Part shown: piece by piece, positions 6,559 to 63,475 of the stretch | Numbering within the stretch: the stretch's first letter is position 1 | How the letters are laid out: the number at the start of each line of letters is the position of its first letter | Assembly (NCBI GenBank): GCA_964650465.1 | Contig: CAZYTA010000003.1 | Location: 32,268 to 96,267, forward strand | From: an uncultured Oscillospiraceae bacterium | GTDB taxonomy: Bacteria > Bacillota > Clostridia > Oscillospirales > SIG627 | Length of the DNA stretch: 64,000 bases | Reading direction: 5' to 3' | Notes under the pieces: model-generated | The model's database searches: none | What the model was told of the DNA's origin: nothing | The model's input: the letters and a program-made list of their open reading frames with translations, nothing else | Program-made: the position numbers and the translations under genes

Positions 6559-6715
6559 TAAGCCGAAGAGAGTCGAACCCTTGTCGGTTTCATAGGGGAA
6601 TTTTCGCCCCTGCCGTCGTTACATTCCCTTGCATATATGTATTCCAAGCGACGAAAGGACATTTAGACCGAAAAGGGCTTTTCTCGGCGGCAATGATTCG
6701 ATTCTCTTCGGCTTA
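6559..6715 (-). repeat. TIR-bounded structured element, copy 1 (157 bp)
   Basis: Terminal inverted repeats TAAGCCGAAGAGAGTCGAAC … GATTCGATTCTCTTCGGCTTA. The body is shared with the copy at 37735-38010. It sits 11 nt upstream of the lipoprotein RBS on the minus strand. Confidence 0.6.
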
Positions 6716-6775: not shown

Positions 6776-6783
6776 TATCTCAT

Positions 6784-6877
6784 GCAGAGTAGAGTCAACT
6801 GCGTAAAGTGCTTATCGGACGGGGAGTTGCCGATTTGACGAAGGTTTTCCGCGGTAGTTTGGCTCGCATCCCGCTGC
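6784..6877 (+). promoter_or_regulatory. THF (tetrahydrofolate) riboswitch
   Basis: GCAGAGTAG…GCGTAAAGTG…GGACGGGGAGTTGCC…GCATCCCGCTGC matches the conserved THF aptamer (AGAGUAG / GCGUUAAGUG / GGAUGGGAUGU / GCAUCCGCUCC). It is located in the 5' leader of a folT-folC operon. Confidence 0.8.
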
Positions 6878-6937
6878 TACAATTAAAGAGACTCTTTTTG
6901 CCTCCTTAATGGTAGCTTACTTTAAGGAGGTATTTTT

Positions 6938-8760: not shown

Positions 8761-8780
8761 AATTCCCTATAAAGTAAGAA

Positions 8781-8818
8781 TGTGGATGTAAAAAACTTTT
8801 TACATCCACATTTTTATA
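8781..8818 (+). terminator. Rho-independent terminator after folC
   Basis: Hairpin TGTGGATGTAAAAAAC-tttt-TTACATCCACA followed by TTTTTATAT. Confidence 0.75.
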
Positions 8819-8930
8819 TCCTATGAAATTGCATTAAATCAACTTCGCCGTATTACTTTGCTTCGTTTTATACATTGGTAGCGATGGGCGAGCATTGCCA
8901 GCGGAGGCTCTCCGTTTTTTATAGCTTGAG
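8819..8930 (+). repeat. Terminator-adjacent repeat family A, full copy
   Basis: CCTATGAAATTGCATTAAATCAACTTCGCCG…GCGATGGGCGAGCATTGCCAGCGGAGGCTCTCCGTTTTTT. It is about 80% identical to the copy at 63115-63222 and to the reverse-complement copy at 53448-53552. Confidence 0.65.
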
Positions 8931-11026: not shown

Positions 11027-11104
11027 TGTCGCTCCTTTTTTAAGAATTATAGCATATTACTCGTGATAGTTTCTACAACTATCTTACGAAATAATAAAAC
11101 TATA

Positions 11105-15976: not shown

Positions 15977-16456
15977 TCAGCGTGAGACGGTTTTAAAATG
16001 CTTGTAGCTGTAGTATATTGCAAAAACTATTATATGCGCCGCAACAGCGCCCGAAAAATCTGTCCATATGTCCTTGACCTCGGCACCTCTGCCGCTTGAA
16101 AACAGCTGAACCGTCTCATCTGTAAAGGCAGTAAACAAAGAAAGAGACAGCGAATGCAAAAAAAGTGAAACGCGGGACATCTTGATAAAAAACGAGCCTA
16201 TGTAATACAGCGCACCCAGAACAAAAAACTCTATAAAATGCGCTGTTGTACGTACTATTGACACATCCACCATTGCTTCGGGGTCAAACTTGCGGACAAT
16301 CATTTGCAAAAATTCCGCCACCTTATTGCTCTGCTCTGTGGATTTAATACCGTTGGCTATGGAATTGTAAAAAATAAATGACAGCCAAAAAATAAGCACC
16401 AGAATATATACCGATATAAATATTTTTCTGTTTTTACCGTAAAATATGTTTTCCAT
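15977..16456 (-). CDS. VanZ family membrane protein
   Basis: 159 aa, 4 TM helices. VanZ-like signature FIEFFVLGALYY. Confidence 0.55.
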   Translation of the reverse strand: MENIFYGKNRKIFISVYILVLIFWLSFIFYNSIANGIKSTEQSNKVAEFLQMIVRKFDPEAMVDVSIVRTTAHFIEFFVLGALYYIGSFFIKMSRVSLFLHSLSLSLFTAFTDETVQLFSSGRGAEVKDIWTDFSGAVAAHIIVFAIYYSYKHFKTVSR

Positions 16457-17040
16457 TATTTCCTTCCTTGAATTACAGGAGATATGCGTTTATATACAGC
16501 AAAAGTGAGAAGCACATTGAGAAGCCCTTTTAACAAGGTAAAAGGGAAATTGAACACAATAACAACCTTAAACACACTGTCAACCCAAGGAATCAGCTTT
16601 GATGACATTCCTATTATGGCTTCAATAGGCATTATCCTCGAATAAGCGGGATAAACAAGAAAATAATTTGTTATAACGGCTACAAAAGCCATTGAAAAAG
16701 CACCGATAAGCGATGCTGCAAGTGCACCTTTTTTGGTCTTATGAGTTCTGTAGTAAAGTCCTGCCAAAACAACAAAAGAGGAGCTGAGAAGGAAATTGGA
16801 CAGCTCACCTACAAAGCCTGTGGTGGATGCAGGCAGACTGACAAGATTCTTTATAAGGCAGACAGCAAAGCCGCTGACAGGTCCCACAGCAAAGGATGCC
16901 AGCAATGCAGGAAAATCCGAGAAATCTATTTTCAGATACGAGGGTGCTATCGGCAGGGCAAAGTTCAGGTACATCAAAACGCTTGACAGTGCCGCAAGAA
17001 GTCCCGTAACCACAATTTTCCTTGTTGGTGATGTTTTCAT
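16456..17040 (-). CDS. ECF transporter S component (riboflavin, RibU-like)
   Basis: 194-aa six-TM S-component. An FMN riboswitch sits in its 5' leader. Confidence 0.65.
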   Translation of the reverse strand: MKTSPTRKIVVTGLLAALSSVLMYLNFALPIAPSYLKIDFSDFPALLASFAVGPVSGFAVCLIKNLVSLPASTTGFVGELSNFLLSSSFVVLAGLYYRTHKTKKGALAASLIGAFSMAFVAVITNYFLVYPAYSRIMPIEAIIGMSSKLIPWVDSVFKVVIVFNFPFTLLKGLLNVLLTFAVYKRISPVIQGRK

Positions 17041-17069: not shown

Positions 17070-17190
17070 AGGTATACCTCTTTCGTTTCTTTCGTCCGGA
17101 CTGTAACCGTCGGTATCGGAATTTCACCGATTCAGCCAAAGCTCGCAGACTATAACTGCCGGTGAGGATTTGCACCTCGCCCTGAAACAA
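17070..17190 (-). promoter_or_regulatory. FMN riboswitch (RFN element)
   Basis: Minus strand reads AGGGCGAGGTGCAAATCCTCACCGGCAGT…AGTCTGCGAGC…GGTGAAATTCCGATACCGACGGTTACAGTCCGGACGAAAGAA. This matches RFN motifs (GGGTGAAATTCCC, ACCGGCGGT, AGCCCGCGAGC, CCGACAGT…AGTCTGGATG). A CCCTGAAAGGAGG sequester element is adjacent to the RBS. Confidence 0.8.
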
Positions 17191-17205
17191 AAATTTTACA
17201 ATACA

Positions 17206-19463: not shown

Positions 19464-19682
19464 AAGTACCTCTTTTCCCTATCGGCTTTTAAATTTATTG
19501 AGAATTTCACAAAAATACTCTCGCCGTTTTTTGCAATGGAATGCTTTTTAGCAAAAATTCCCGCATACTCGAAAAGCAAATTGAGATTATTTTTTATTTA
19601 ACAAGATACTAACGCCGACGGCGGCTCGCTGCTGCAGTTGGTTCTGAAGGTAATGATACAACAGCAATATAAAAAATTGAAT

Positions 19683-31129: not shown

Positions 31130-31207
31130 TATAACACCTCATTTCAACTGTGATAAAGGGGATGTTAAAAAAGCTCAAAAGTTTTTTTAAACAGCCCCTT
31201 TATGCTT

Positions 31208-34200
31208 TTAATAGAGTCTGACCTTTTCAATATCTACAGGCATATCCACTTTCGGCTCTGTCCAATCCGAGGGATTTTCAACAGTTGCACCGCTGACACC
31301 GATAACCACATGAGCACGTGTGGTAAGGTCTGTCATAGCCTCTGCCTTGTAGGAGAAGTTAAATTTGCCCTTGGGAACTTCAAGCTTACCTGTAAAGGTG
31401 ATCTCCTTAACATGAGCTTCATCGTCTACCCACTTGCCTTCTGCATCGTAGATTTGAGTGTAGTAGTTAAGGTATGCCTTGTTTTCATCGGGATAATACT
31501 CAATGAAATCACCGCCGTGAAGCTCTGCATCAAAGGCAATTGTCTTGCCGTCAACTGTCAGAGAAGGATTTTTCACAGGTGCATCAATAGGCTCAAATGC
31601 CACAAGGTCGTCAATCTTGACACCGCTGCAGCTTCCGCAAAGGGTAACTGTTACGGAATTGAGCGCACTGAAATTGGCGTGAGCACGGTATGTCTCATAG
31701 TTGATACCGCCAGTCGAAATACCGCTGAAGGTATATCCCTCGTAATCGTCATTGTTGGCTTCAAGGAGGATTATCTCCTTCCAACCGCTGAAATTAAGAG
31801 GAATGAAGTAATCGTTTCGTCCTGCCTCCGCTGTATTGACACCTCTGAGCGTAATAAGGATAGCATCGCTTACCGAATTGTTTCCGAACACCCTTATCTT
31901 AAGTGCTGTCTTGCCCGTAGCATCAATGTTGGAAAAGCTGTATTTGCCCTTTATTTCCGTAACGGGCTTATTCTCGTCAAAGGCGTAGATAACCGTTCCG
32001 TTTTCACCCTTGGTTGAATATCTCTGCTCCAATCTAATGAATGGAGTCTGTGCATCAAATGGGTTGTTGGCACTTCCTTTTGCGAAATTAGGCTCGGAAA
32101 TATCATATATCTTGTGCTTGAAATACGTCATTTCCTTGAACGCCCAGCTTCCGTCCTCCTGCATGAATACCTTATATTCGTACTTGCCGTTCTTTATGGT
32201 ATTTCTTACCTCAGGTGAGAAGTAGTTTGCCTCACGAAGTCTGGTATAGAGTCCGTAGTACATGAAGTTGTCGGAAAGTCTGGTCTTTTCGTTAAATGCC
32301 GAAATGGAGAAGGGCTGACAAACTGTTGAGAAGTTGTAGGCTATACCGATTGAGCCCATATGGTCAAGGTCATCACGGTACATGGTTCTTGTGGTGGTAT
32401 CCTTGAACTGTGAGTCCTTGTCGGGCAGGTAGTTGAACCAGCCGAGAGTTGCGGTATAGAAAATATTGGGATAGGTCTTGAGCATTGCATTGAGATGCCC
32501 TTCCTTATGGTTCTTATATGCTCTGTATGCATAGTCTGTAGCACCGCCTCTTGCTCTTGCGCTCCAAAGGTAAGTCGCGAAGGTAGAGAACTCGATAAGA
32601 GGCTTGACCTCACAGTTTGAAACGACCGTTCGTACAAACTCGGCATAGATATAATATCCCTGTCTTGAATCATAAAGTCCATTGTGTGCAAAGGACTCGA
32701 GACCGTCAAGATAAATCATCTCAAAGCCGCCCTCGTTGTAAGCCTTGGCAGTATCCTCGGCTATCTTGTAGAACAACTCTGAAAGAGGCTGGGGCTGGAA
32801 CATGCCGTACCATCCGAGAAGCTGACGGATAACTGCGCCGTCTGCGTGCTCAGAAGGCTTTGTACCAAGCTGTCCTCGTCTTACGTTAAGGAAGCCCGAG
32901 GAGGAACCGGACTGAACGTAGATAATCTCTTCGTCGATGAGGATATATCTGGTGTGAACATTGTTCCACGGTATTGATGAGCCTGTCACCACAAATTTTG
33001 ATGCATCCTCATTGGTCTTTATGTTTGTTCTGAACTTGGAAAGCTTACCTCTCACTGTGTAGGTTTCCTCATCGAAGCAAAGCTGCTGCTGCCATTTGGG
33101 ATTGGTAAGGATATTCTTTGCATTTGAGGGAACAAGTGACGAATAGGTATGGAGACCGAGCTGTATGCCCTCTGCTCTTACCTTGTCAGCAATTCTTTCC
33201 TTGAACACCTTGGCAGTGATGAAGGTCTCGTCCTTCTTCTCCTGCTCGTTTCTTGCCGTAATGAAGTTGAAGTCAGCGGTTATGAAGTTGGAGCCCTGGT
33301 GGAGGTCCATCTGTTCGATGCTGTATTTGTTGGCAAGCTGTGCAGTCTCTGTTGCATTATCGGGATAAAGACCGCTGTTGATGATAACGTAATCTCCGAA
33401 TATATCGGAATTGTCAAGAGCATACGCACCGCCGTGTGTAGAGGTTATACCCTTTGCAGGGTCGATTGCATCCGCAATGCTCTTGAGGTGGTTGCGGTGC
33501 TCAGTCATACGGGAGAATGCAACGCCGAGCTTTGCTCCGAGGGTGGGTACGCCGAGATAGGTATAAGTAGTACCCTTTGCCGCTTTGGATGAGCCGCCCG
33601 GGTAGTAGTGGTTGTTGACCGTTGTGGTCATAGGCACGCCCGAGAGCCCGTATGCCTCGGGATTGTCAAGCTCCCAGGGGGCATTTACAGTAAGATTACA
33701 GATTACTGCACCGCTCAAAGAAGAAGGAAGGTTGGTATCAAGAGTAACCGTGAAATGGTCCTTTTTAACATCAATGATATAATAAGCAACGGTTCCGTCT
33801 TTATATGTAGTTTTGAGTCTGCCGTTTTCCACATCTACCTCGGCAGGCTGAACAGTAGCACCTGAGGCATTGATAATATAAGAGAACCAGGGAGAGGCAG
33901 AAGCAAGATTCATATCTTCACCTGTCATCTTATTGATAACAGAGGTAACCTTACCGCCCTTTCTTGCAATGGATACCTTTATATAATCGTTTTCAAAGTA
34001 TACCTCGGTACCCGACTTTTTAAGCTGAGTCAGGTCGGCATCATAATAGTAATCACCGTGTACATTGCTGTTGGATGCCATAAGAATCTGATATTCTGCC
34101 CAGTGACCGCCAATGTCCGAGAACACTGTATCAAGATGTGTTCTGCTGACTGTATCAGCGTTGGCAAGCACAGAAATAAGACGGTTTATAACCGTTACAA

Positions 34201-35821
34201 CTTCTGCACGTGTAATGGTGGCATTGGGCTTGAAGGAGCCGTCGCCATAGCCGTTTACAAGACCTGTTGCCGCCGCGGCAACAATGGCGTCATAATACTT
34301 GTTAGATTCATCAACGTCGGTAAAGGTGATATCTGATTTTGCTGTAAGATTAGATGCAAAGTATGCCAACTCAACAAACTCGGCTCTTGTTATCTTTGCA
34401 TTGGGATTGTATTTATTCGATGTATTGGTAAAGAAATATCCTGTTTCATCAAGATAAGCAATTGCATTGTAGAACCAATCCCCGTGCTTAACATCCGTGA
34501 ATCGGGTTGTATAGCCGTCTGGTATTGTCTGTGAGCCTGTGAGAAGCCTTGCAAATATTGTACAGGCTTCTGCCTTTGTCATGTTATCATTGGGCTTGAA
34601 CAGGTTTCCTGCATAGCCGTTTATGTATGCCTTATTGTTTCCGTTGGTCTGTGTTGCGACCTTGGGAAGAACTGTTACGGGGTCAGGGGCGGGGAGGTCG
34701 GCAAGATTAAGCTTTATAACCTTGTGAGTATCCTCAATGTAACCGCCTGTCTTATTGTGGTAAGGAACACCGAATCTTACATCTACGGTTTTATCCTCTT
34801 CGGAGAATTTTATCAGCAGAGGATAGGCGTTGCCCGAGGCGGCAAGATTGCCCTCAAGATTTGCCATGACTGCCGCTACATCGTAGCCGTTTTTGTTTTT
34901 AAAGGTATTTGTAACAATTTCTGCTCCGGAGTTACCTGTCGCCGAAACAATACATACGATATTGTCCCACTTAGAAAAAGCATATTCCCAGAGATTTGTA
35001 CCGTCACGGGGCTTATCGTTGTGGAGAATTCTGGTTCTTACGGTAGTGGAATACTTGGTGTATACCGCAAGCCACTCGGACTGTGAAAGATTCCAGTCAT
35101 GCTGGGTATACATCTCTCCTTTAGGGTCAAGGAAGGATGTAGTGAACACCACCGCACGCTTGTCAAGGTTGTTTTCCTGTACTGTATTGAACCAATTCAA
35201 AACAGACTGTCTCGGGAAAGCCTCAAGCTGATACACAAGGTATGAGCTTTTTCCGTCCTTGATGTAGACAACCATATTATTGCTGTCATACATTTCGTAT
35301 TCATAGCCCGAAGTTCCTATATAATCACCGGAATCAAAAACAGTCTGAAGATGGTTGTTTCTTTCAAAACCGCCGCCGCAATAGTCATTCTGTCCGATGG
35401 AAACACCGTAGGCTATTTCCATGTCGGTAAGAAGAGAGGCGGTATTTTTCAGAGCCTCAAAATCCCGCATCCATTCCTCGTCGGCAACGTTTGCTTCAAC
35501 AAGCTCTTTTTCGGTATGTCCCTGCTGTGCAACATACTGTGCGTGTACAAAGTTGGGTCCCGAGGACATGTTGCCGATAAAGCTGACATACCTGAGCCCA
35601 TAGCGGGACACAAGGTCACCAAGCCAATAGCACGCATCTTCGACGGGAGTAAGATTCAAGCCGTCTGCAAAGAATGGCTTTGTACCGTTGAAGCTTGCAA
35701 CTACAAAGTCACTCTCCTTGGCATAATCATCTTCAAGGACTGCCGTTTTTGCAAGTGAGCTCACCGTAAGAGCCGCTGCAACAGCCAAAAGACAAAGAAA
35801 CAGTGATAAAAGTCTTTTCAT
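31208..35821 (-). CDS. Giant cell-surface protein with three internal SLH domains (putative glycan-active enzyme)
   Basis: 1537 aa with a signal peptide (MKRLLSLFLCLLAVAAALTVSSLA). Three SLH repeats lie at about aa 385-560 (…YINGYAGNLFKPNDNMTKAEACTIFARLL…, …FTDVKHGDWFYNAIAYLDETGYF…, …FTDVDESNKYYDAIVAAAATGLVNGYGDGSFKPNATITRAEVVTVINRL…). About 1300 aa of the flanking sequence are unassigned. Confidence 0.65.
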   Translation of the reverse strand: MKRLLSLFLCLLAVAAALTVSSLAKTAVLEDDYAKESDFVVASFNGTKPFFADGLNLTPVEDACYWLGDLVSRYGLRYVSFIGNMSSGPNFVHAQYVAQQGHTEKELVEANVADEEWMRDFEALKNTASLLTDMEIAYGVSIGQNDYCGGGFERNNHLQTVFDSGDYIGTSGYEYEMYDSNNMVVYIKDGKSSYLVYQLEAFPRQSVLNWFNTVQENNLDKRAVVFTTSFLDPKGEMYTQHDWNLSQSEWLAVYTKYSTTVRTRILHNDKPRDGTNLWEYAFSKWDNIVCIVSATGNSGAEIVTNTFKNKNGYDVAAVMANLEGNLAASGNAYPLLIKFSEEDKTVDVRFGVPYHNKTGGYIEDTHKVIKLNLADLPAPDPVTVLPKVATQTNGNNKAYINGYAGNLFKPNDNMTKAEACTIFARLLTGSQTIPDGYTTRFTDVKHGDWFYNAIAYLDETGYFFTNTSNKYNPNAKITRAEFVELAYFASNLTAKSDITFTDVDESNKYYDAIVAAAATGLVNGYGDGSFKPNATITRAEVVTVINRLISVLANADTVSRTHLDTVFSDIGGHWAEYQILMASNSNVHGDYYYDADLTQLKKSGTEVYFENDYIKVSIARKGGKVTSVINKMTGEDMNLASASPWFSYIINASGATVQPAEVDVENGRLKTTYKDGTVAYYIIDVKKDHFTVTLDTNLPSSLSGAVICNLTVNAPWELDNPEAYGLSGVPMTTTVNNHYYPGGSSKAAKGTTYTYLGVPTLGAKLGVAFSRMTEHRNHLKSIADAIDPAKGITSTHGGAYALDNSDIFGDYVIINSGLYPDNATETAQLANKYSIEQMDLHQGSNFITADFNFITARNEQEKKDETFITAKVFKERIADKVRAEGIQLGLHTYSSLVPSNAKNILTNPKWQQQLCFDEETYTVRGKLSKFRTNIKTNEDASKFVVTGSSIPWNNVHTRYILIDEEIIYVQSGSSSGFLNVRRGQLGTKPSEHADGAVIRQLLGWYGMFQPQPLSELFYKIAEDTAKAYNEGGFEMIYLDGLESFAHNGLYDSRQGYYIYAEFVRTVVSNCEVKPLIEFSTFATYLWSARARGGATDYAYRAYKNHKEGHLNAMLKTYPNIFYTATLGWFNYLPDKDSQFKDTTTRTMYRDDLDHMGSIGIAYNFSTVCQPFSISAFNEKTRLSDNFMYYGLYTRLREANYFSPEVRNTIKNGKYEYKVFMQEDGSWAFKEMTYFKHKIYDISEPNFAKGSANNPFDAQTPFIRLEQRYSTKGENGTVIYAFDENKPVTEIKGKYSFSNIDATGKTALKIRVFGNNSVSDAILITLRGVNTAEAGRNDYFIPLNFSGWKEIILLEANNDDYEGYTFSGISTGGINYETYRAHANFSALNSVTVTLCGSCSGVKIDDLVAFEPIDAPVKNPSLTVDGKTIAFDAELHGGDFIEYYPDENKAYLNYYTQIYDAEGKWVDDEAHVKEITFTGKLEVPKGKFNFSYKAEAMTDLTTRAHVVIGVSGATVENPSDWTEPKVDMPVDIEKVRLY

Positions 35822-37719: not shown

Positions 37720-37734
37720 TGTTTCCTCCGTTAT

Positions 37735-38010
37735 AGCCGAAGAGAGTCGAACCCTTGTCGGTTTCAGAGGGGAATTTTCGCCCCTGCCATCGTTACATTC
37801 CCTTGTAATACGGCAGTATGACTGCGGGAAATGTGCCTTGCCAGGAACAAAAATTTCCGTCTGAAACTTCCCGAGAACCGAGAAAAGATGATTTTCGAGG
37901 ATAAATTTTCTTGAGGAATGCAGGAATACTATATGTATTCTAAGGGACGAAAGGAAATTTAGACAGAAAAGGGCTTTTCTCGGCGGCAATGGTTCGATTC
38001 CCTTCGGCTA
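37735..38010 (-). repeat. TIR-bounded structured element, copy 2 (276 bp)
   Basis: TIRs TAGCCGAAGAGAGTCGAAC … GGTTCGATTCCCTTCGGCTA. Both ends match copy 1 at about 85%. It carries an internal insertion of about 120 nt. It ends 5 nt from the GH127 RBS (minus strand) and abuts the -35 box of the divergent AraC promoter. Confidence 0.6.
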
Positions 38011-38908: not shown

Positions 38909-39000
38909 GGACCGTCGAGGACGCCGGTCCCTACAATTTTTCACCGCTTTTGCACAAAAACAGGTGTGTAGCAAGTAATTTTGCTACACACCTATTATAT
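38909..39000 (+). repeat. Hairpin repeat B, copy 2
   Basis: GCGGACCGTCGAGGACGCCGGTCCCTACAATTT followed by GGTGTGTAGCAA-gtaatt-TTGCTACACACC. Confidence 0.6.
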
Positions 39001-39094
39001 TCGATTTGAATTTGTATGGAATCAAGCCGTCTATCTATTGCCTGTGCGAGTACAATCAATGGATAGACGAGCTTTGTCGGCGGTCACTGACCGT

Positions 39095-39985
39095 TTATGC
39101 CATATAATATTTTTTCATCATTGTTTTTGTGAACTCAAGGAGGAAAAGTGCTTCGCTGTCAAGCTTTTCTTCGGTGAGACCTTCCTGGAGGTTACGCCAT
39201 GTGCGGATATCGTAGCCTACCTCGTTGCCCATGCGGAGAAAGGGCTCTGATACGATGTCCTTCTTGTATCCGATATCGCTGAGCGCCTTGAATATCTCAT
39301 TCCAGTCAAGGTGTCCTCTTCCGGGCACATTACGGTTATTCTCGCCTGTGTGGAAGTGACGGAGTCTGCTGCCTACAAGACGGATAGCATCTCCGATATT
39401 ATCCTCCTCAATGCCCATGTGGTAGGTATCGAGGTGGATACCTATGTTCTTGCTGTTTACCATATCGGCATAGGCTATAGCCTCTTTTGCGGTATTGATA
39501 ACGGGAGATTCGAAGCGGTTAACAGCTTCAACACAAACCGTAACGCCTTCCTTTTCGGCTACCTTCATTACCTGCTGCATACTGTCGACACTGCGTGCGG
39601 TGATAGCCTCCTTCTCCTTTTCGTCGATGAAATATGTAGGAACGCCCCAGCCTGCGTAGGTAACGCCCGAAAACAGCTCGCCCTCCATAACAGCAATCTT
39701 TCTGACGATGTTTGAGAGGTATTCGACACCGCCGCGGCGGATTTCGGCATCGGGATTTGCCACATCGTATTTGGGGTTGAGACCGAGGCTGTAGGAAAGC
39801 TTTATTCCGCGCTCATCTGCATACTTCTTGATTTCGCGGCATTCTGCATCGGTCATTTCAAGAAGGGGCTGAGCCTGAAACTCAAGGATATCGAAGCCAA
39901 GCTTCTTCACCTTGTCGATGTAATACTTATAGTTGATAGTCCATGACTGCTCCCAGAAGTTTACGAAAATACCAAGCTTATTCAT
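39095..39985 (-). CDS. Ketose 3-epimerase-like TIM-barrel protein (D-psicose/D-tagatose 3-epimerase family)
   Basis: 296-aa xylose-isomerase-like barrel. The layout (…VCVEAVNRFE…HLDTYHMGIEE…HFHTGENNR) is typical of DTE/DPE enzymes. RBS is AAGGAG. Confidence 0.55.
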   Translation of the reverse strand: MNKLGIFVNFWEQSWTINYKYYIDKVKKLGFDILEFQAQPLLEMTDAECREIKKYADERGIKLSYSLGLNPKYDVANPDAEIRRGGVEYLSNIVRKIAVMEGELFSGVTYAGWGVPTYFIDEKEKEAITARSVDSMQQVMKVAEKEGVTVCVEAVNRFESPVINTAKEAIAYADMVNSKNIGIHLDTYHMGIEEDNIGDAIRLVGSRLRHFHTGENNRNVPGRGHLDWNEIFKALSDIGYKKDIVSEPFLRMGNEVGYDIRTWRNLQEGLTEEKLDSEALFLLEFTKTMMKKYYMA

Positions 39986-42422: not shown

Positions 42423-44351
42423 TTATTGGTTTACTATTTCGTTTTTAACCACCGATTTAAGCATACCGCCGATGCGGATTATAAATTGATCGTTGTCAAG
42501 TATTTTGTGGTAAACGGGCTCGTTGCGCTTAAGTATATCCACGAGCTCGGACCAAAGAATATCCGCTTCGTCGCTTTTGCCGATATTCTTGTATAACAGC
42601 GCATTGGCAAGGTGTAGCATCACCTCGTTGTGATACAGGAGATATCCCCACGATTTTTTCACATTGCCCGCCTCAAGCTCTGTATGCTTTTGAATTACAG
42701 GCTTGAATTCATGGAGTAATGCGATACATTTCTTTATATTTTCCAAATTAGCAATGCTTTCCTCGGAGCCGTTTACAAAGCCGCTGATTTTTTCAAGGTA
42801 TTGCTTTACGGCAAGTCCGTTTTTACCGAAGGCGGACATAAAGTATTTGGTGCTTTCGGCTTCAAAGTCGGCATCTTTATTCCAGAGAGCTACAGCCATC
42901 ATATATGTTGGCAATGCAGTAGGAAAAGCGTTTCTTGTTACCTGACAGCTTACCATTCCGTTGAGGGAAAGTCTGTCAAGATTTTGCATATCGGTGAATA
43001 CCCTTCGGGCAATATACATACCGCCGAGGTCTCTCCACTGACGGGCAAAAAGGTGATAATCAAAATCAAAGGAATCACCGTCGAATATATCCTGCCACTC
43101 CGAAAGGAGCTTGGCGCACTTGCCAATGTCAGAGGGTGATACAGACTTATTCTTTACGTAGGGAACACTCTCATATGAACGAGGGTCGGTGATGCTGTCA
43201 AAGCCGTATTCGTATGAACGACCCCCGGGGGCAAGCATTAGGACAAAACGATCTTTGTTGTAAAAGCGCTCCTTGACGGGTGCCCAGGTAACGTCGGTAT
43301 AAGTAAGGAATACTATTTTCGTGTCAATGCCAAGGTCCGTGAGCCTTCTGTCAAGGTCATTGAGCATCATTACATAATAATCTGAAGGGCGCTCAACGCA
43401 GTTTTCACACTCACATGAATTTTTCTGACCATCCGCCAGCCAGAAGTGAAGCAAGTCAACCTTCGGGTTTTCCTTGCAGTAATCAACTATTGAACTGACA
43501 ATTATCTCACGCACCTTGGGATTTGAATAGCAGAGGTTTGTCCAATTCGGTACATTACCGTGAAATTCACGCTTGCCGTTTTTCATGGCAAGATGCCACT
43601 TTCTGTCCTCAGGAACAGAATTCGGCTCGACGGGATAACCTCCGTTGCCCTCAAAGCCAAAGGGAGTGCTTGTCCAGCCGTGTCCAACATGGTGAAACAG
43701 AAGTCCGCGCTTCTTCATTTCCTCCACAAGAGAATCAAACATAGCTGTGACATCCTCACGGCTGACCGTTTCGCCGTCAATATATTCGTTTGCGTAATGG
43801 GTATACCATCTGTCCATAAAGCGAAAAGGTATAAAGAACTGAAAGAAATAACCGCTCATACCCATGCGGGGAAGCCACTTTATCATATTAAGTATATGCT
43901 CGTAGGAAACATCTCCCTCAATGCATATTGCTCTGTGGCGGTAGGATGCCTTTTCACTTACATCAACATTGATATCGGTTATTTTGTATTCGGGAATAAT
44001 TTCGCCGTCATCTGTAGGTCTCACCCATGCCACACCAAGCTCACGCAGGAAGCGGTAAGCGGCAATAAGCACCGCACCCGAATTACAGCCTGTAATGATA
44101 CCTGCATTGTTTTTTACATTGATATATATGGAAGTATCAAGCCTTTTATCCTCTACAGCGGGAAGGAGGGAGGAAAACGCCTCACTCTCCCCTACCCATA
44201 TAACTCTGTCAACGGATTTATCGTATTCGTTATAATAACGGACATCAACAAAAAGTGAGCTGTCGATTTTTTTAAGATAGCTATAAAGCTCTTCAACGGC
44301 ATATGCTGCCGCAGGGCTGCTTCCTATTCTTGCAAGAGTTATTCTTGTCAT
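42423..44351 (-). CDS. Hypothetical 642-aa protein, paralog 1 (GH20b-like N-domain + barrel; DUF4838-like?)
   Basis: About 65-70% identical by eye to the adjacent paralog. Conserved CECENC motif. Start set at MTRITLARIG, preceded by AGGTGG. Confidence 0.55.
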   Translation of the reverse strand: MTRITLARIGSSPAAAYAVEELYSYLKKIDSSLFVDVRYYNEYDKSVDRVIWVGESEAFSSLLPAVEDKRLDTSIYINVKNNAGIITGCNSGAVLIAAYRFLRELGVAWVRPTDDGEIIPEYKITDINVDVSEKASYRHRAICIEGDVSYEHILNMIKWLPRMGMSGYFFQFFIPFRFMDRWYTHYANEYIDGETVSREDVTAMFDSLVEEMKKRGLLFHHVGHGWTSTPFGFEGNGGYPVEPNSVPEDRKWHLAMKNGKREFHGNVPNWTNLCYSNPKVREIIVSSIVDYCKENPKVDLLHFWLADGQKNSCECENCVERPSDYYVMMLNDLDRRLTDLGIDTKIVFLTYTDVTWAPVKERFYNKDRFVLMLAPGGRSYEYGFDSITDPRSYESVPYVKNKSVSPSDIGKCAKLLSEWQDIFDGDSFDFDYHLFARQWRDLGGMYIARRVFTDMQNLDRLSLNGMVSCQVTRNAFPTALPTYMMAVALWNKDADFEAESTKYFMSAFGKNGLAVKQYLEKISGFVNGSEESIANLENIKKCIALLHEFKPVIQKHTELEAGNVKKSWGYLLYHNEVMLHLANALLYKNIGKSDEADILWSELVDILKRNEPVYHKILDNDQFIIRIGGMLKSVVKNEIVNQ

Positions 44352-44403: not shown

Positions 44404-46335
44404 TTACATAATTGATTTTTTGACTATACCGTGAACCTGCATAACATCGAGGACCTTATGGAGGCTTGTTTCGTTTCTCATAAGGTAATCGACAAAGGAG
44501 CCTACTGCCTTATCGACAGTTCCTTCGTTGCCTTCTATTGCCTGAATTACGCAATTTACGAAATATTCAACATATACCTTGTGAAGAACAAGATATTCCC
44601 AGGATTTGAGCTGACCTGCAGGAAGGTTCTTTGCGAGATTCTTCTTTACTGTTGCTTCAAATTCAGCAACGAGTGCCAAAGCCTTCTTGACAAGTGCAAG
44701 ACGCTTTTCCTTTTCATAGGGGCGGTTGCCTACCTGACGGGAGTACACAGGGTCCACGAGGTCGCTGAGGGTCATCATATATTCCTTTACAGCCTTCCAA
44801 TCCTCGCCGAATGCCGACTTGAAGTAGGTATCACACCTTTCGTCAAAGTCGCAGGTCTCGTCCCAAAGGGCATCTGCCATGAGCTGCATGGGCAGGTTTG
44901 TGGGGAATGCACAGCGGGTAAGCTGACAGGACACCATACCGTCAAGACCTATTTTGTGAAGGGCTTGCATATCGCGGAAGAGGATATTTGCAACCTTGTA
45001 ATAACCGAGGTCATAGAGGTGATCCCACATAAGATGATAGTCGAATACGAAGCTGTCCTCGGAATGTATCTTTTTCCAGCCCTTGAGAAGCTCGAAGTTT
45101 ACACCTACATCCTTGGGGAAGTTAAGCTTATTCTTGATATATTCGGGTGCATCGTAGGTCTTTGTCATATCAAGCTGGTCATAGCTCTGTGAGTATGAGC
45201 GTGTGATAGGTGCGAACATGAGTACAAAGCGGTCGGGGTTGTTGAAGCTCTCCTTGAGGGGACCCCAAAGAAGATCCACATATATAAGGAATACTATCTT
45301 GGTATCGACACCCATTTTTGCAAGCTTTGCATCAACCTCGTTAAGCATCATTACGAAGTAATCCGAGGGGCGCTCAACACAGTTTTCGCACTCGCAGTTA
45401 TTGTTTGAGCCGTCTGCAAGCCAGAAGTGGAGGTATTTTACCTCGGGGTTATCGCGGCAGTATTCAGCCATGGCAGTGGTGAGAGTGTCACGCACCTTGG
45501 GATTTGAGTAGCAGAGGTTTGTATTGAGCGGTACATCGCCCCAGAATTTGCGCTCGCCGTCTACCATGGCAAGAATGTCTCTTATTTCCTGCGAAACATC
45601 CTCGGTGTTTACCTTTACCCAGCCGTCGCCGCCGGGAATGCCGAAGGGCTCACAGGTCCATCCGTGGCCTACCTTATGAAGAAGAAGCTCTCTCTTTTCT
45701 ATTTCCTCGGAGAGCTGAGAAACTATTGCGTCTACATCCTCTCTCGACACATTTTCGCTGTCATAATTGGGGTTGCTTGTATGGCTATACCATCTGTCGA
45801 AAAAGTGGAAGGGACGGTTGAACTGGAAGAAATAGCCGCTCATGCCCGCTCTGGGTATCCACTTTATCATATTTAAAACATGCTCGTAGGAAACCGAGCC
45901 CTCGATACATACTGCTCTGTGGCGGTAGGACGCCTTCTCCTGTACATTTACATTTATGTCTGTTACTGTATATTCGGGCACAACCTCGCCGTCGTCGGTG
46001 GGTCTTACCCATGCGACACCAAGCTCCTTGAGGAATCGGTATGCGGCAATGAGGACAGACCTGGGATTACAGCCTGTAATGACACCTGCGTTGTTCTCAA
46101 CCGAAATGAAAATAGAATCATCTCTCTTGGGGTCCTTTACTTCAAGAAGCCTTGAGTTAAGCTTCTCACTGTTACCAACCCATATAACTCTGTCAACCGA
46201 CTCATCGTAATCCGAATATGCACGGATATCAACAAAGAGTGTGCTGTCGATTTTTTTGAGGTAGGTATAAAGCTCCTCAACTGCATAATTTACAGTTTCG
46301 TTTCTGCCTATTTTGGCAAGTGTTATTCTTGTCAT
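44404..46335 (-). CDS. Hypothetical 643-aa protein, paralog 2
   Basis: Tandem duplicate of the downstream gene. RBS is AAGGAGAA. Confidence 0.55.
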   Translation of the reverse strand: MTRITLAKIGRNETVNYAVEELYTYLKKIDSTLFVDIRAYSDYDESVDRVIWVGNSEKLNSRLLEVKDPKRDDSIFISVENNAGVITGCNPRSVLIAAYRFLKELGVAWVRPTDDGEVVPEYTVTDINVNVQEKASYRHRAVCIEGSVSYEHVLNMIKWIPRAGMSGYFFQFNRPFHFFDRWYSHTSNPNYDSENVSREDVDAIVSQLSEEIEKRELLLHKVGHGWTCEPFGIPGGDGWVKVNTEDVSQEIRDILAMVDGERKFWGDVPLNTNLCYSNPKVRDTLTTAMAEYCRDNPEVKYLHFWLADGSNNNCECENCVERPSDYFVMMLNEVDAKLAKMGVDTKIVFLIYVDLLWGPLKESFNNPDRFVLMFAPITRSYSQSYDQLDMTKTYDAPEYIKNKLNFPKDVGVNFELLKGWKKIHSEDSFVFDYHLMWDHLYDLGYYKVANILFRDMQALHKIGLDGMVSCQLTRCAFPTNLPMQLMADALWDETCDFDERCDTYFKSAFGEDWKAVKEYMMTLSDLVDPVYSRQVGNRPYEKEKRLALVKKALALVAEFEATVKKNLAKNLPAGQLKSWEYLVLHKVYVEYFVNCVIQAIEGNEGTVDKAVGSFVDYLMRNETSLHKVLDVMQVHGIVKKSIM

Positions 46336-51392: not shown

Positions 51393-51451
51393 ATAACCCT
51401 ATAACAAAGCGGTCAGTGACCGCTGACAATGCCCGCCTATCGTAACCTATG

Positions 51452-51500
51452 GATGTACCCGAACAAGGTAAACGGCGAGGTTTGTTTAATACAGTTTCCT
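51452..51500 (-). repeat. Repeat family A, partial 5' module
   Basis: The minus strand reads TATTAGGAAACTGTATTAAACAAACCTCGCCGTTT. It directly follows the terminator hairpin at 51507-51530. Confidence 0.45.
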
Positions 51501-51506
51501 AATAGA

Positions 51507-51530
51507 GAATAAATCAGGCAAGGCGCAACT
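51507..51530 (-). terminator. Terminator of the capAB operon
   Basis: GGCAGGGCGCAG-ttg-CGCCTTGCC followed by TGATTTATTCT (minus strand). Confidence 0.55.
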
Positions 51531-53278: not shown

Positions 53279-53446
53279 ATGAAAAACACAGTGAAAATCA
53301 TGGAAGGACTTGCAATAGGAATGATTATAGGAGGAACAGCAGGCGCATTCATTGCCTCCAAGATAAAAAACTGCAGTAACTCCGGAAAACGTTTTACTCA
53401 CGCTATAAAATCCGCCTGCGGCTTTATCGAAGATATCTGCGGCTAA
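53279..53446 (+). CDS. Small (55-aa) membrane protein, unannotated ORF
   Basis: Strong RBS GAGAGGAGATAACAT-ATG. One TM helix (GLAIGMIIGGTAGAFIA) and three Cys. It falls below the 60-aa cutoff of the ORF track. Confidence 0.35.
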   Translation: MKNTVKIMEGLAIGMIIGGTAGAFIASKIKNCSNSGKRFTHAIKSACGFIEDICG

Positions 53447-53447
53447 G

Positions 53448-53590
53448 CGGAGAGCCTCCGCGGGCAATTCTCGCCTATCTTAACAATATATCTGCACCCA
53501 AACACAGCACAACGGCGAGGTTGATTTAATGCAATTTCCTATGATATAAAAAAGCAGAGAGCCTCCGCAGGAAATTTTTGCCTATCGTTC
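53448..53590 (-). repeat. Repeat family A: one full copy plus a 3' fragment of a second, minus orientation
   Basis: The reverse complement reads …GATAGGCAAAAATTTCCTGCGGAGGCTCTCTGCTTTTTTATATCATAGGAAATTGCATTAAATCAACCTCGCCGTT…GATAGGCGAGAATTGCCCGCGGAGGCTCTCCGC. Confidence 0.6.
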
Positions 53591-53728
53591 CATCATTCAA
53601 ATCGAAAATTTACGGGAGGGATCACCCCTCCCATACAATCATTGAAGCATTACCACTGTAGATGAGGCGTTTCGCCTCCCGTTCTATTAATGTGAATTTG
53701 CGTTAGCAAATGCGAATTCTTATAACAT

Positions 53729-55070: not shown

Positions 55071-55124
55071 CTTTTGTCTATTAGACGGTGGGAATACTTT
55101 TTTGTTCCGCATATTTTGCAAAAA

Positions 55125-55300
55125 TGTCGAGGTTGTTTTAATACAATTTCCTATGATATAAAAAAGTCGCCTTCGGCAACTGATGTTCGCTAACGCTCAC
55201 AATTTCAGAGGTAGACTTTGTTTGTTACAAGCAATTGCGATGCAATTTCCTATGTAATAAAAAATCACTCCGCATTTCTGCGGAGTGAAGTTTTGTTTAC
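55125..55300 (-). repeat. Two partial copies of repeat family A, each after a hairpin
   Basis: The minus strand reads CACTCCGCAGAAATGCGGAGTG-ATTTTTTATTACATAGGAAATTGCATCGC and GTTGCCGAAGGCGAC-TTTTTTATATCATAGGAAATTGTATTAAAACAACC. Confidence 0.5.
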
Positions 55301-63086: not shown

Positions 63087-63114
63087 TAAAAGCACCTCAC
63101 ATCTCCGTTTTATT

Positions 63115-63222
63115 TGCTATGAAATCGCATTAAAACCAACCTCGCCGTTTTGCTTTGCCCGGAGGTATATATTTGGTTGCGATAGGCGAGCATTGCCGAC
63201 GGAGGCTCTCTGCTTTTTTTAC
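63115..63222 (+). repeat. Repeat family A, full copy
   Basis: GCTATGAAATCGCATTAAAACCAACCTCGCCG…GCGATAGGCGAGCATTGCCGACGGAGGCTCTCTGCTTTTTTT. Confidence 0.6.
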
Positions 63223-63475
63223 ATTGTAGCACACATTCGCCGAAAAGTAAACAAAAAAAGTTGCTGTCGCAAATTCGTTATAACTACACTTCGTTACGTT
63301 GTGATATGATATAAATTTCATTCTCGTCCCGAAGGGACATATCGCATTACTCGGTAATATATCGCACCGAAGGTATATCGCAAATTCCATTAGGAATTTA
63401 TATCAATTATCGATATAAAAACGACTCGTCTAAACAAGTCGTTTTTTCAGGCTGTTACGGACCATTATGGTACCG

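Follow-up and report, generated by a model that had tools for sequence, protein, structure and literature searches.

The 64-kb window analysed here (64,000 nt of contig CAZYTA010000003.1 from an uncultured Oscillospiraceae bacterium) carries an interspersed repeat, family A, which is best explained, with a probability of about 0.7, as a non-autonomous, terminator-mimicking mobile repeat of ~105 nt that is moved in trans and has spread as selfish DNA. Its units stand directly behind T-runs, which usually belong either to an unrelated native terminator or to the hairpin of a preceding unit, and they open there with ATAT(A/G)CTAGGAAATT (all full units listed with their flanks). The general kind of element, a selfish small mobile repeat, is already known; what sets this one apart is the unusually clean rule by which it lands on terminator T-tracts.

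The family was collected with a profile built from four window copies and then iterated (nhmmer), which gives nine matches in the window. Over all sources (the window and 62 further loci, nearly all from one metagenome-assembled genome, MAG) there are 174 profile matches, 116 of them full length and 111 with unique flanks. The loci stem from an exact-pattern scan of GTDB at one genome per species, which returned 62 stretches; 61 of these belong to a single MAG, Eubacteriales bacterium JAZSDT01, where ~450 kb of sampled DNA holds at least 163 matches. The remaining one (L041, from a Christensenellaceae MAG) lies inside an apparent coding sequence and was set aside. The window organism is a relative of JAZSDT01 and not that MAG itself, as syntenic genes are 82-84% identical. 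A scan of JGI metagenomes with the 3' box gave 12 matches, with a clear full-length copy only in contig L066, a third genome; L068 (44% GC) is a weak and partial match, and the other ten are short and lie in contigs of 57-73% GC. No match to the family was found in collections of phages, plasmids and viruses. Its host range so far thus comprises one GTDB species, the present window and the metagenome contig L066, and the family is confined to a small group of related Eubacteriales genomes, a narrow gut-type lineage. Median identity to the consensus is 86% for the MAG copies (neighbours up to 98%), 74-78% for the four canonical window copies and 53% for a diverged copy at 39005; by this measure, the MAG copies are younger than those in the window.

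The layout of the unit was drawn from an alignment of 104 distinct full units together with the information content of each column. The consensus is 106 nt long with 42% GC, and the array period is ~105 bp. At the 5' end, a T-run is followed by ATAT(A/G)C-TAGGAAATTGCATTAAATCAAC, the 5' box, which has no pairing partner; a second type of 5' box, ACTTTATAGGAAATTTCTCGATTATTACGCC, is found in 14 of 99 MAG units. Next come CTCGCC-GTTT, a semi-variable core of ~30 nt and GATA-GGCGAG, and the 3' end comprises a linker, (C/A)(A/T)TTGCC(A/G), the hairpin GCGG-NN-GCT-N'N'-CCGC and T6, usually followed by A(T). Units contain no open reading frame (ORF). Repeat search, flank listing and alignment revealed no terminal inverted repeats within them either, the internal hairpin being the sole inverted-repeat pair.

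Selection maintains pairing in the terminal hairpin, a 7-bp stem of about -10 kcal/mol with U6 behind it. At its apex, the two base pairs come in four variants, all of them fully compensated: CT/AG, TC/GA, AG/CT and AT/AT (CG 45, UA 30 and AU 25 at one position; UA 50, CG 29 and GC 21 at the next). Of the hairpin cells, 97.5% are paired; shuffles give 89.6%, with none of 500 as high as the real alignment, and slid controls reach 32-46%. The 6-bp CTCGCC/GGCGAG helix is 98% paired and nearly invariant, and the few changes in it are one-sided and mostly compatible with G-U pairing. Apart from this helix, the consensus fold supports the terminal hairpin only, and whole units are not folded more stably than shuffled sequence (z of +0.8 to -1.3).

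Five of the units in the window are full; the other copies are one half unit and four fragments of the 5' end. Unit A1, the copy that was flagged at the outset (8817-8923, +; nhmmer 8817-8917, E = 3e-24), consists of the 5' box, a CTTCGCC/GGGCGAG helix, the hairpin CGGAGGCTCTCCG and T6, with a terminator-like site at 8900-8916. It has landed behind the native bidirectional terminator hairpin of a folC-like gene and its T5 run (8779-8816; 15-bp stem by the scan). A4 (51406-51510, -; nhmmer 51406-51504, E = 3.5e-23) likewise follows a native terminator (51543-51514), and its 3' hairpin is a compensated variant, GGTCACTGACC (hairpin variant GCGGTCACTGACCGC). The diverged unit A8 (39005-39096, +; E = 2e-8) stands behind a native hairpin at 38963-38994; its long helix is re-paired as CGTCTATC/GATAGACG, and it folds at -35.3 kcal/mol (z = -4.7). 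A3 (53445-53546, -; E = 2e-25) is the second member of an array of 1.5 units, and its landing site is the hairpin and T6 of the half unit A3' (53551-53591, -; model positions 63-103, E = 1.7e-5; terminator-like site 53568-53554). A2 (63113-63222, +; nhmmer 63113-63216, E = 2e-22; own hairpin 63200-63212) is not behind a terminator but follows ...CTCCGTTTT, antisense in the leader of a minus-strand gene. This gene starts near 63090, and a promoter-like site with an upstream TG, TTTACT-17-TACAAT, is seen at 63223-63251 (-); it would transcribe across A2 in antisense, leaving the unit in a 5' leader and in its non-terminating orientation.

The fragments all derive from the 5' end. The 5'-box solo A6 (55121-55158, -; model positions 2-39, E = 2e-4) lies behind a hairpin at 55181-55165 and stops at the unit's internal T-run, the short fragment A5 (55240-55267, -; repeat D5, 89% identity over 28 nt) is directly behind a terminator at 55288-55265, and the solo A7 (1904-1943, -; E = 3e-4) follows the hairpin CATCACCCCCGATACTTTCGGGGGTGATG. 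A degenerate solo ending in CTCGCCGTTTTT was detected at 19499-19531 (+; nhmmer, E <= 1), with a copy of another repeat, 'family C', directly after it. An independent repeat search recovers the family as D2, D5, D8, D11, I1, I3, I4 and I7-I10, linking 8.8, 39.0, 51.4, 53.5, 55.1 and 63.1 kb.

The initial annotation had proposed such a family from the letters of the window. The family is real, as its 37-nt 5' box has 0 expected matches in shuffles, and the profile and repeat searches place the copies essentially where they had been reported. The copy at ~51.4 kb, which had been called partial, is in fact a full unit, and those at 39005-39096, 1904-1943 and 19499-19531 had been overlooked. The claim that every copy follows a hairpin and a T-run holds for the copies beginning at 8817, 51504, 55158, 55268, 1943 and 39005, all with native hairpins, and for that at 53546, where the hairpin is the half unit's own. 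It fails for 63113 and 19499; the short T-run in front of these copies is the A-rich leader and ribosome-binding site (RBS) of a divergent gene, read in reverse complement. Nor do all full copies end in a hairpin and a T-run, since the unit at 53445 has lost its terminal T-run (CCGCTTAGCC).

The coupling to terminators was upheld in the larger MAG sample. The 40 nt upstream of occupied MAG T-runs fold with a median of -11.05 kcal/mol, as against -3.3 kcal/mol for 707 unoccupied non-ORF runs of T5 or longer, and 61% of the occupied but only 20% of the unoccupied runs have an upstream fold of -8 kcal/mol or lower (Mann-Whitney p = 7e-10). Occupied T-runs are also longer (mostly T6-T7), whereas 67% of the unoccupied hairpin-associated ones are T5. 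About a quarter to a third of the sites have no hairpin; these are T-runs in the leaders of divergent genes, typically CTCC or CCTC plus a T-run, the reverse complement of RBS and A-rich leader (window 63113 and 19499, L003 6570, L066). The invariant feature of the target is the T-tract, while the hairpin is enriched but not required. Among the early suggestions, a mobile element aimed at terminator hairpins is the one favoured by the variable occupancy of orthologous and paralogous sites, the precise junction behind the T-run, the orientation by T-run strand and the self-targeted arrays, with the T-tract in place of the hairpin as the invariant target.

Orientation is set by the strand of the T-run. 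At the folC terminator, one (+) unit lies to the right of the hairpin in the window and two (-) units lie to the left of the same hairpin in L003, and at both sites the 5' box abuts a T-run on the unit's own strand. Loci L011, L015 and L051 carry back-to-back pairs around one shared bidirectional hairpin. T-runs flank every unit, and the lengths of the left and right runs are uncorrelated (rho = 0.13, p = 0.37). No measurable target duplication was found; the empty and filled sites fit both an insertion without duplication, in which the element carries T6, and a duplicated T-run. In the simplest description, a segment ATAT...CCGC-T6 is inserted between a T-run and the base that comes 3' of it, in most cases an A.

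Comparison of the two genomes reveals insertion polymorphism. One site reads CGCTCC-T6-AAGAATTATAGC in the window (11036-11052, +; CGCTCC-TTTTTT-AAGAATT) and is empty, and the orthologous MAG locus (L003, 6564-6780) contains two tandem units as CGCTCC-T5-unit-T6-unit-T4-AGAATTATAGC. The terminator region of an S-layer-domain gene (31208-35821) carries two units in L024 and none in the window (31130-31207). Within the MAG, paralogous leaders termed 'family B' are empty in three cases and filled in at least seven, with one or two units that are always inserted exactly between TATATCC-T6 and ATTGTTG. No position is common to the window genome and the MAG at any of the three comparable sites, which speaks against the family having arisen for a conserved host function. 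Family B itself is a conserved segment of ~140 nt upstream of paralogous MAG genes (L039 668-807 and 925-1277; L042, L046, L060, L007, L006, L014); it matches nothing in Rfam and is possibly a leader or promoter that these genes have in common.

Arrays are short, with 78 single, 37 double and 7 triple sites, and never exceed 3 units. The hairpin variant, the core subfamily and the 5'-box type assort independently across the family, the core falling into a few common subfamilies (52, 24 and 5 members), and from this pattern modules have been exchanged between copies. Some neighbours are 93-95% identical yet differ in all four apical bases of the hairpin, with CT/AG in one and AG/CT or TC/GA in the other (L049 427-642, L039 1021-1236, L009 130-344). 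The only explanation offered for these coordinated switches is that they suggest short-patch recombination in the conserved flanks. The 5'-box solos stop at the unit's internal GCCGTTTT(T) run. Family C (TACGAGGGAATGCTTTTTAGCAAAAGCACTCCCTCG...; window 19532-19580, L062 7133, L057 14, L058 3113, L063 2273) is another small repeat that starts directly after T5-6 runs; the internal T-run of family A is among them, and insertion there splits units into 5' solos. More than one repeat family in these genomes thus obeys the 'after T-run' rule.

With respect to genes, 48 of 87 arrays lie between convergent ORFs, compared with 56 of 239 spacers overall (Fisher p = 1.9e-7; ORFs serving as proxies for genes), and the upstream ORF is co-directional for 65 of the 87. 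The terminal hairpin and U6 probably also form a modest backup terminator. Leaving the native terminator intact and adding a modest one would make insertions tolerable and account for their enrichment between convergent genes.

In the mechanism that we favour, a unit would insert immediately 3' of a T-tract, its 5' box adjoining the T-run, so that orientation is dictated by the strand carrying the T's. Since the usable T-tracts are mostly those at the ends of intrinsic terminators, the unit would end up behind genes, especially between convergent ones, and the native terminator would stay intact. The unit's own 7-bp GC hairpin and T6 would then recreate the target, such that further units could land there and build head-to-tail arrays, with local duplication adding to array growth. 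The combination of oriented insertion, a single subterminal 3' hairpin and head-to-tail multimers with the lack of inverted repeats and of a clear duplication points to movement catalysed in trans by a strand-specific enzyme, which would recognise 'GC stem + T-tract' both as the 3' end of the donor and as the target. A tentative first guess for this enzyme, rather doubtful in itself, is an HUH-type single-strand transposase, either IS200/IS605-like or rolling-circle-like, and the next option is a site-specific recombinase with a T6-A core as its substrate. The mosaics could also arise without an enzyme, by template switching between T-runs, but this would hardly account for units at more than 100 unlinked loci.

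Several observations weigh against this reading. Units next to each other resemble one another more than randomly paired ones do (0.84 versus 0.76, p = 2e-5), which implies that arrays grow partly by local duplication and not by new insertion alone. The hairpin enrichment at occupied sites could reflect either a true preference or the survival of harmless insertions, and the MAG loci were picked via the 5'-box pattern, with ORF proxies as gene calls. There is one small conserved hairpin only, not one per end. Pfam scans of 45 window ORFs (most of the 51 called, including two alternative calls) found housekeeping genes only, with no transposase, integrase or reverse transcriptase, the matches being to metabolic, regulatory or surface families and 9 of the 45 having none; the MAG loci share no common multi-copy repeat of >300 bp and contain no multi-copy insertion sequence (IS) element. 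The HUH guess in particular is challenged by the lack of a 5' hairpin, by the failure to find a partner and by the lack of replication-strand bias (50 versus 39 arrays relative to the G-rich strand, p = 0.29), a poor match to the classical lagging-strand mechanism of IS200/IS605. A phmmer search with IS608/IS200 TnpA, XerD and LtrA seeds found nothing in the sampled DNA, which is a weak negative.

A different and unlikely possibility is that an undescribed insertion machinery reads the intrinsic-terminator signal itself, a GC stem with a T-tract behind it, and uses this signal to choose the landing site as well as to set the 3' boundary of the segment to be moved, so that any short segment ending in this way could be propagated. 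Two or more unrelated repeats, family A and family C, follow the same rule, and module shuffling and apex switches would be by-products of such a machinery. Alternatively, the units could be a terminator or insulator cassette that the host keeps for reinforcing termination between neighbouring, above all convergent, genes, its copies having arisen by duplication, by gene conversion or through template switching from one T-run to another and not by dedicated transposition. The plausible terminator at the end of each unit, the enrichment between convergent genes, the mosaic units with independently assorting parts, the similarity of neighbours and the truncation of fragments at the internal T-run would all fit such a cassette. 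However, positions differ between the two related genomes at every comparable site, most units stand behind a native terminator that is already good, and some are antisense in gene leaders. In addition, the strongly conserved and unstructured 30-nt 5' box is needless for a terminator, and local duplication would hardly reach more than 100 unlinked loci. A host-selected insulator, which the initial annotation had put forward, is accordingly quite unlikely as the origin of the family.

The same annotation also considered a family of small RNA genes. [quoted passage not shown] Yet no promoter-like site was reported by the scan in, at or before the units, which are placed directly behind terminators, where transcription is lowest; whole units do not fold better than shuffles, and only the terminator hairpin is supported by the consensus. 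In Rfam, the unit had no match at the gathering threshold (window and four loci) and no relevant one at E <= 1 (three-unit array). With >160 copies in one genome and ~10 per 64 kb, far beyond known small RNA families, this is the least probable of the explanations.

Only slightly better is site-specific recombination, a very unlikely route in which a small circular or single-stranded intermediate with an attP-like junction (hairpin-T6-ATAT-5' box) would integrate at T6-A cores by means of a tyrosine recombinase, host Xer or an integrase, regenerating the core on both sides and so permitting repeated integration. The T-runs on both sides of every unit, the head-to-tail arrays and the conserved sequence on both sides of the junction would agree with this, and the dif site of B. 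subtilis (sequence from PMC3025954) offers a further parallel in its left arm (ACTTCCTAGAA), which we take to be the XerC side. In reverse complement, this arm agrees with the 5'-box core TACTAGGAAAT at 9 of 11 bases. Mobility of the bcr1 repeat has also been linked to a site-specific, TTTAT-associated mechanism (PMC6542083). Against it, the whole junction agrees with dif at 15 of 28 positions only (shuffle p = 0.13), so that a Xer/dif mimic was rejected; moreover, the right flanks of the targets are unrelated to the 5' box, a double-stranded circle of 105 bp is sterically unlikely, and no integrase was found nearby. A selfish repeat moved in trans thus remains the preferred reading.

Among known elements, the closest analogues would be SPRITE in form and context, bcr1 in junction motif and orphan status, and group IIC introns in target behaviour. 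SPRITE of S. pneumoniae is likewise a non-coding, interspersed and loosely folded repeat of ~105 nt with a terminator-like 3' part, strongly enriched near 3' ends and between convergent genes, with no known matching IS element and limited to few close species (PMC3049150). However, SPRITE is AT-rich (28% GC) with an 18-bp duplex and a long U-rich tract, as opposed to the 42% GC, 7-bp hairpin and T6 of family A; neither empty sites nor a target rule nor self-targeted arrays have been established for it, and it belongs to the S. pneumoniae/S. mitis lineage and not to a Eubacteriales host. Family A is hence best viewed as an analogue of SPRITE rather than a member, a distinction that is drawn by description and not by sequence.

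The repeat bcr1 of the B. cereus group (Okstad 2004, Kristoffersen 2011) is similarly non-autonomous, strain-variable in position and without classical terminal inverted repeats; it has tens to >100 copies, compensatory changes that keep a stem-loop, and a T-rich junction (TTTAT, compared with T6-AT in family A) (PMC6542083, PMC3184786). It differs in its length of ~155 bp, its cruciform of two stem-loops, its 5-bp direct repeat (TTTAT) and its restriction to the B. cereus group, and the passages considered from two reports mention neither terminator-directed, oriented insertion nor head-to-tail self-targeting (PMC6542083, PMC3184786). Membership of bcr1 or of bcr group A was rejected on length, fold and host, the T-rich junction motif alone being similar. 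Class C (IIC) group II introns are typically located immediately behind terminator motifs, which consist of an inverted repeat and a stretch of T's, and their orientation there is fixed (PMC1702495). Family A resembles them in this post-terminator, oriented targeting only, since the introns are ribozymes, most of which encode a reverse transcriptase, whereas the unit has 105 nt and no ORF; an identity as a group IIC intron was dismissed for the latter reason and for want of a group II match in Rfam at the gathering threshold or at E <= 1.

The modular, mosaic build and the variable number of tandem modules recall the BOX elements of S. pneumoniae, but BOX elements end in inverted repeats and duplicate their target, and boxB is the one module repeated within an element, while family A repeats whole units. 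IS200/IS605-derived miniature elements (palindrome-associated transposable elements, PATEs) and rolling-circle elements of the IS91/Helitron type have no terminal inverted repeats, no target duplication and a subterminal GC hairpin near the 3' end; they insert strand-specifically next to a short motif, and the rolling-circle types form head-to-tail multimers. The IS200/IS605-derived type is further characterised by imperfect subterminal hairpins at both ends, a cognate Y1 TnpA and insertion 3' of a tetra- or pentanucleotide with lagging-strand bias. Oriented insertion 3' of a short motif is common to family A and the IS200/IS605-derived elements. Points of difference are the one-end hairpin, the homopolymeric T-tract target, the lack of strand bias and the absence of a detected HUH transposase (a weak negative).

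Other identities were tried and rejected. Family A is small, non-coding, multicopy and insertion-polymorphic like a classical MITE, but it has no terminal inverted repeats. It is not of the REP/BIME type either, which is an imperfect palindrome of 20-40 nt with such a tag as GTAG or CGTC and an associated RAYT transposase, the unit being ~105 nt long with a 30-nt unstructured 5' box, and its sole small palindrome, GCGGNNGCTNNCCGC, lacks a GTAG or CGTC tag. A CRISPR-like array (75-nt repeat, 30-nt spacer) was discarded as the cores are shared subfamilies and not unique spacers, with a period of 105 nt and at most 3 units. No tRNAs were found that would support a tRNA-derived element. The reverse strand of the 5' box resembles a promoter (TTGATT-N16-18-TATATA/TATAAA) but lacks the conserved final T, and readings by eye as SigH-, SigD- or sigma-54-like promoters fail on spacing or on the -10 element. 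The best sub-threshold Rfam matches (E = 0.05-0.8) are to unrelated eukaryotic or enteric families, and a literature search with sequence strings of the unit returned unrelated primers only.

Some further features of the window deserve mention. A serpin gene (PF00079; 53784-55112, -) lies between the 5'-box solo 55158-55121 and the 3' half unit 53591-53551 on the same strand, an arrangement that may be fortuitous or may mean that the gene is captured cargo. Outside the window, the gene is recorded only in a 1.5-kb contig from the same sample, and both ends of this contig lie at the repeats. An autonomous copy was sought in the ORF so bracketed and rejected, as the ORF is the serpin. A second, unrelated repeat occurs at 6559-6715 and 37733-38009, its halves being 93-97% identical between the copies; terminal inverted repeats of 28 nt (TAAGCCGAAGAGAGTCGAACC... 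/ ...GGTTCGATTCTCTTCGGCTTA) give it the look of a classical MITE. In the copy at 37733-38009, which overlaps the start of a GH127 gene ORF, the halves are separated by an additional ~124 nt. A tetrahydrofolate (THF) riboswitch (6783-6878, +) precedes the gene of a transporter of the energy-coupling factor (ECF) type and a folC-like gene, and a flavin mononucleotide (FMN) riboswitch (17080-17193, -) is directly upstream of minus-strand ORFs (15977-17040); both are clear Rfam matches. The position of the latter would fit a riboflavin operon. Two adjacent paralogous genes of ~645 aa (DUF4838), which share a 300-nt stretch at 77% identity (43797-44096 / 45781-46080), are an ordinary tandem gene duplication.

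If true, the proposed movement would place family A among the clearest examples of small bacterial repeats that land by a defined rule and in a set orientation. In the available part of the 2024 review of prokaryotic MITEs, SPRITE is the sole terminator-like element listed and no terminator-directed landing rule is described (PMC10969869). Terminator T-tracts would serve as safe havens, and copies that bring their own terminator could stack there. The family also provides a testable handle on the movement of orphan repeats of the SPRITE or bcr1 type, a question that has so far gone unanswered for want of empty sites and target rules. For the gut lineage that harbours it, the repeat has practical consequences, as it breaks short-read assemblies: many copies sit at contig ends, and two Logan contigs, with the folC-like gene and the serpin gene, stop in or at repeats. 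In the genomes themselves, the repeats add terminators between genes and serve as strain- and species-variable markers.

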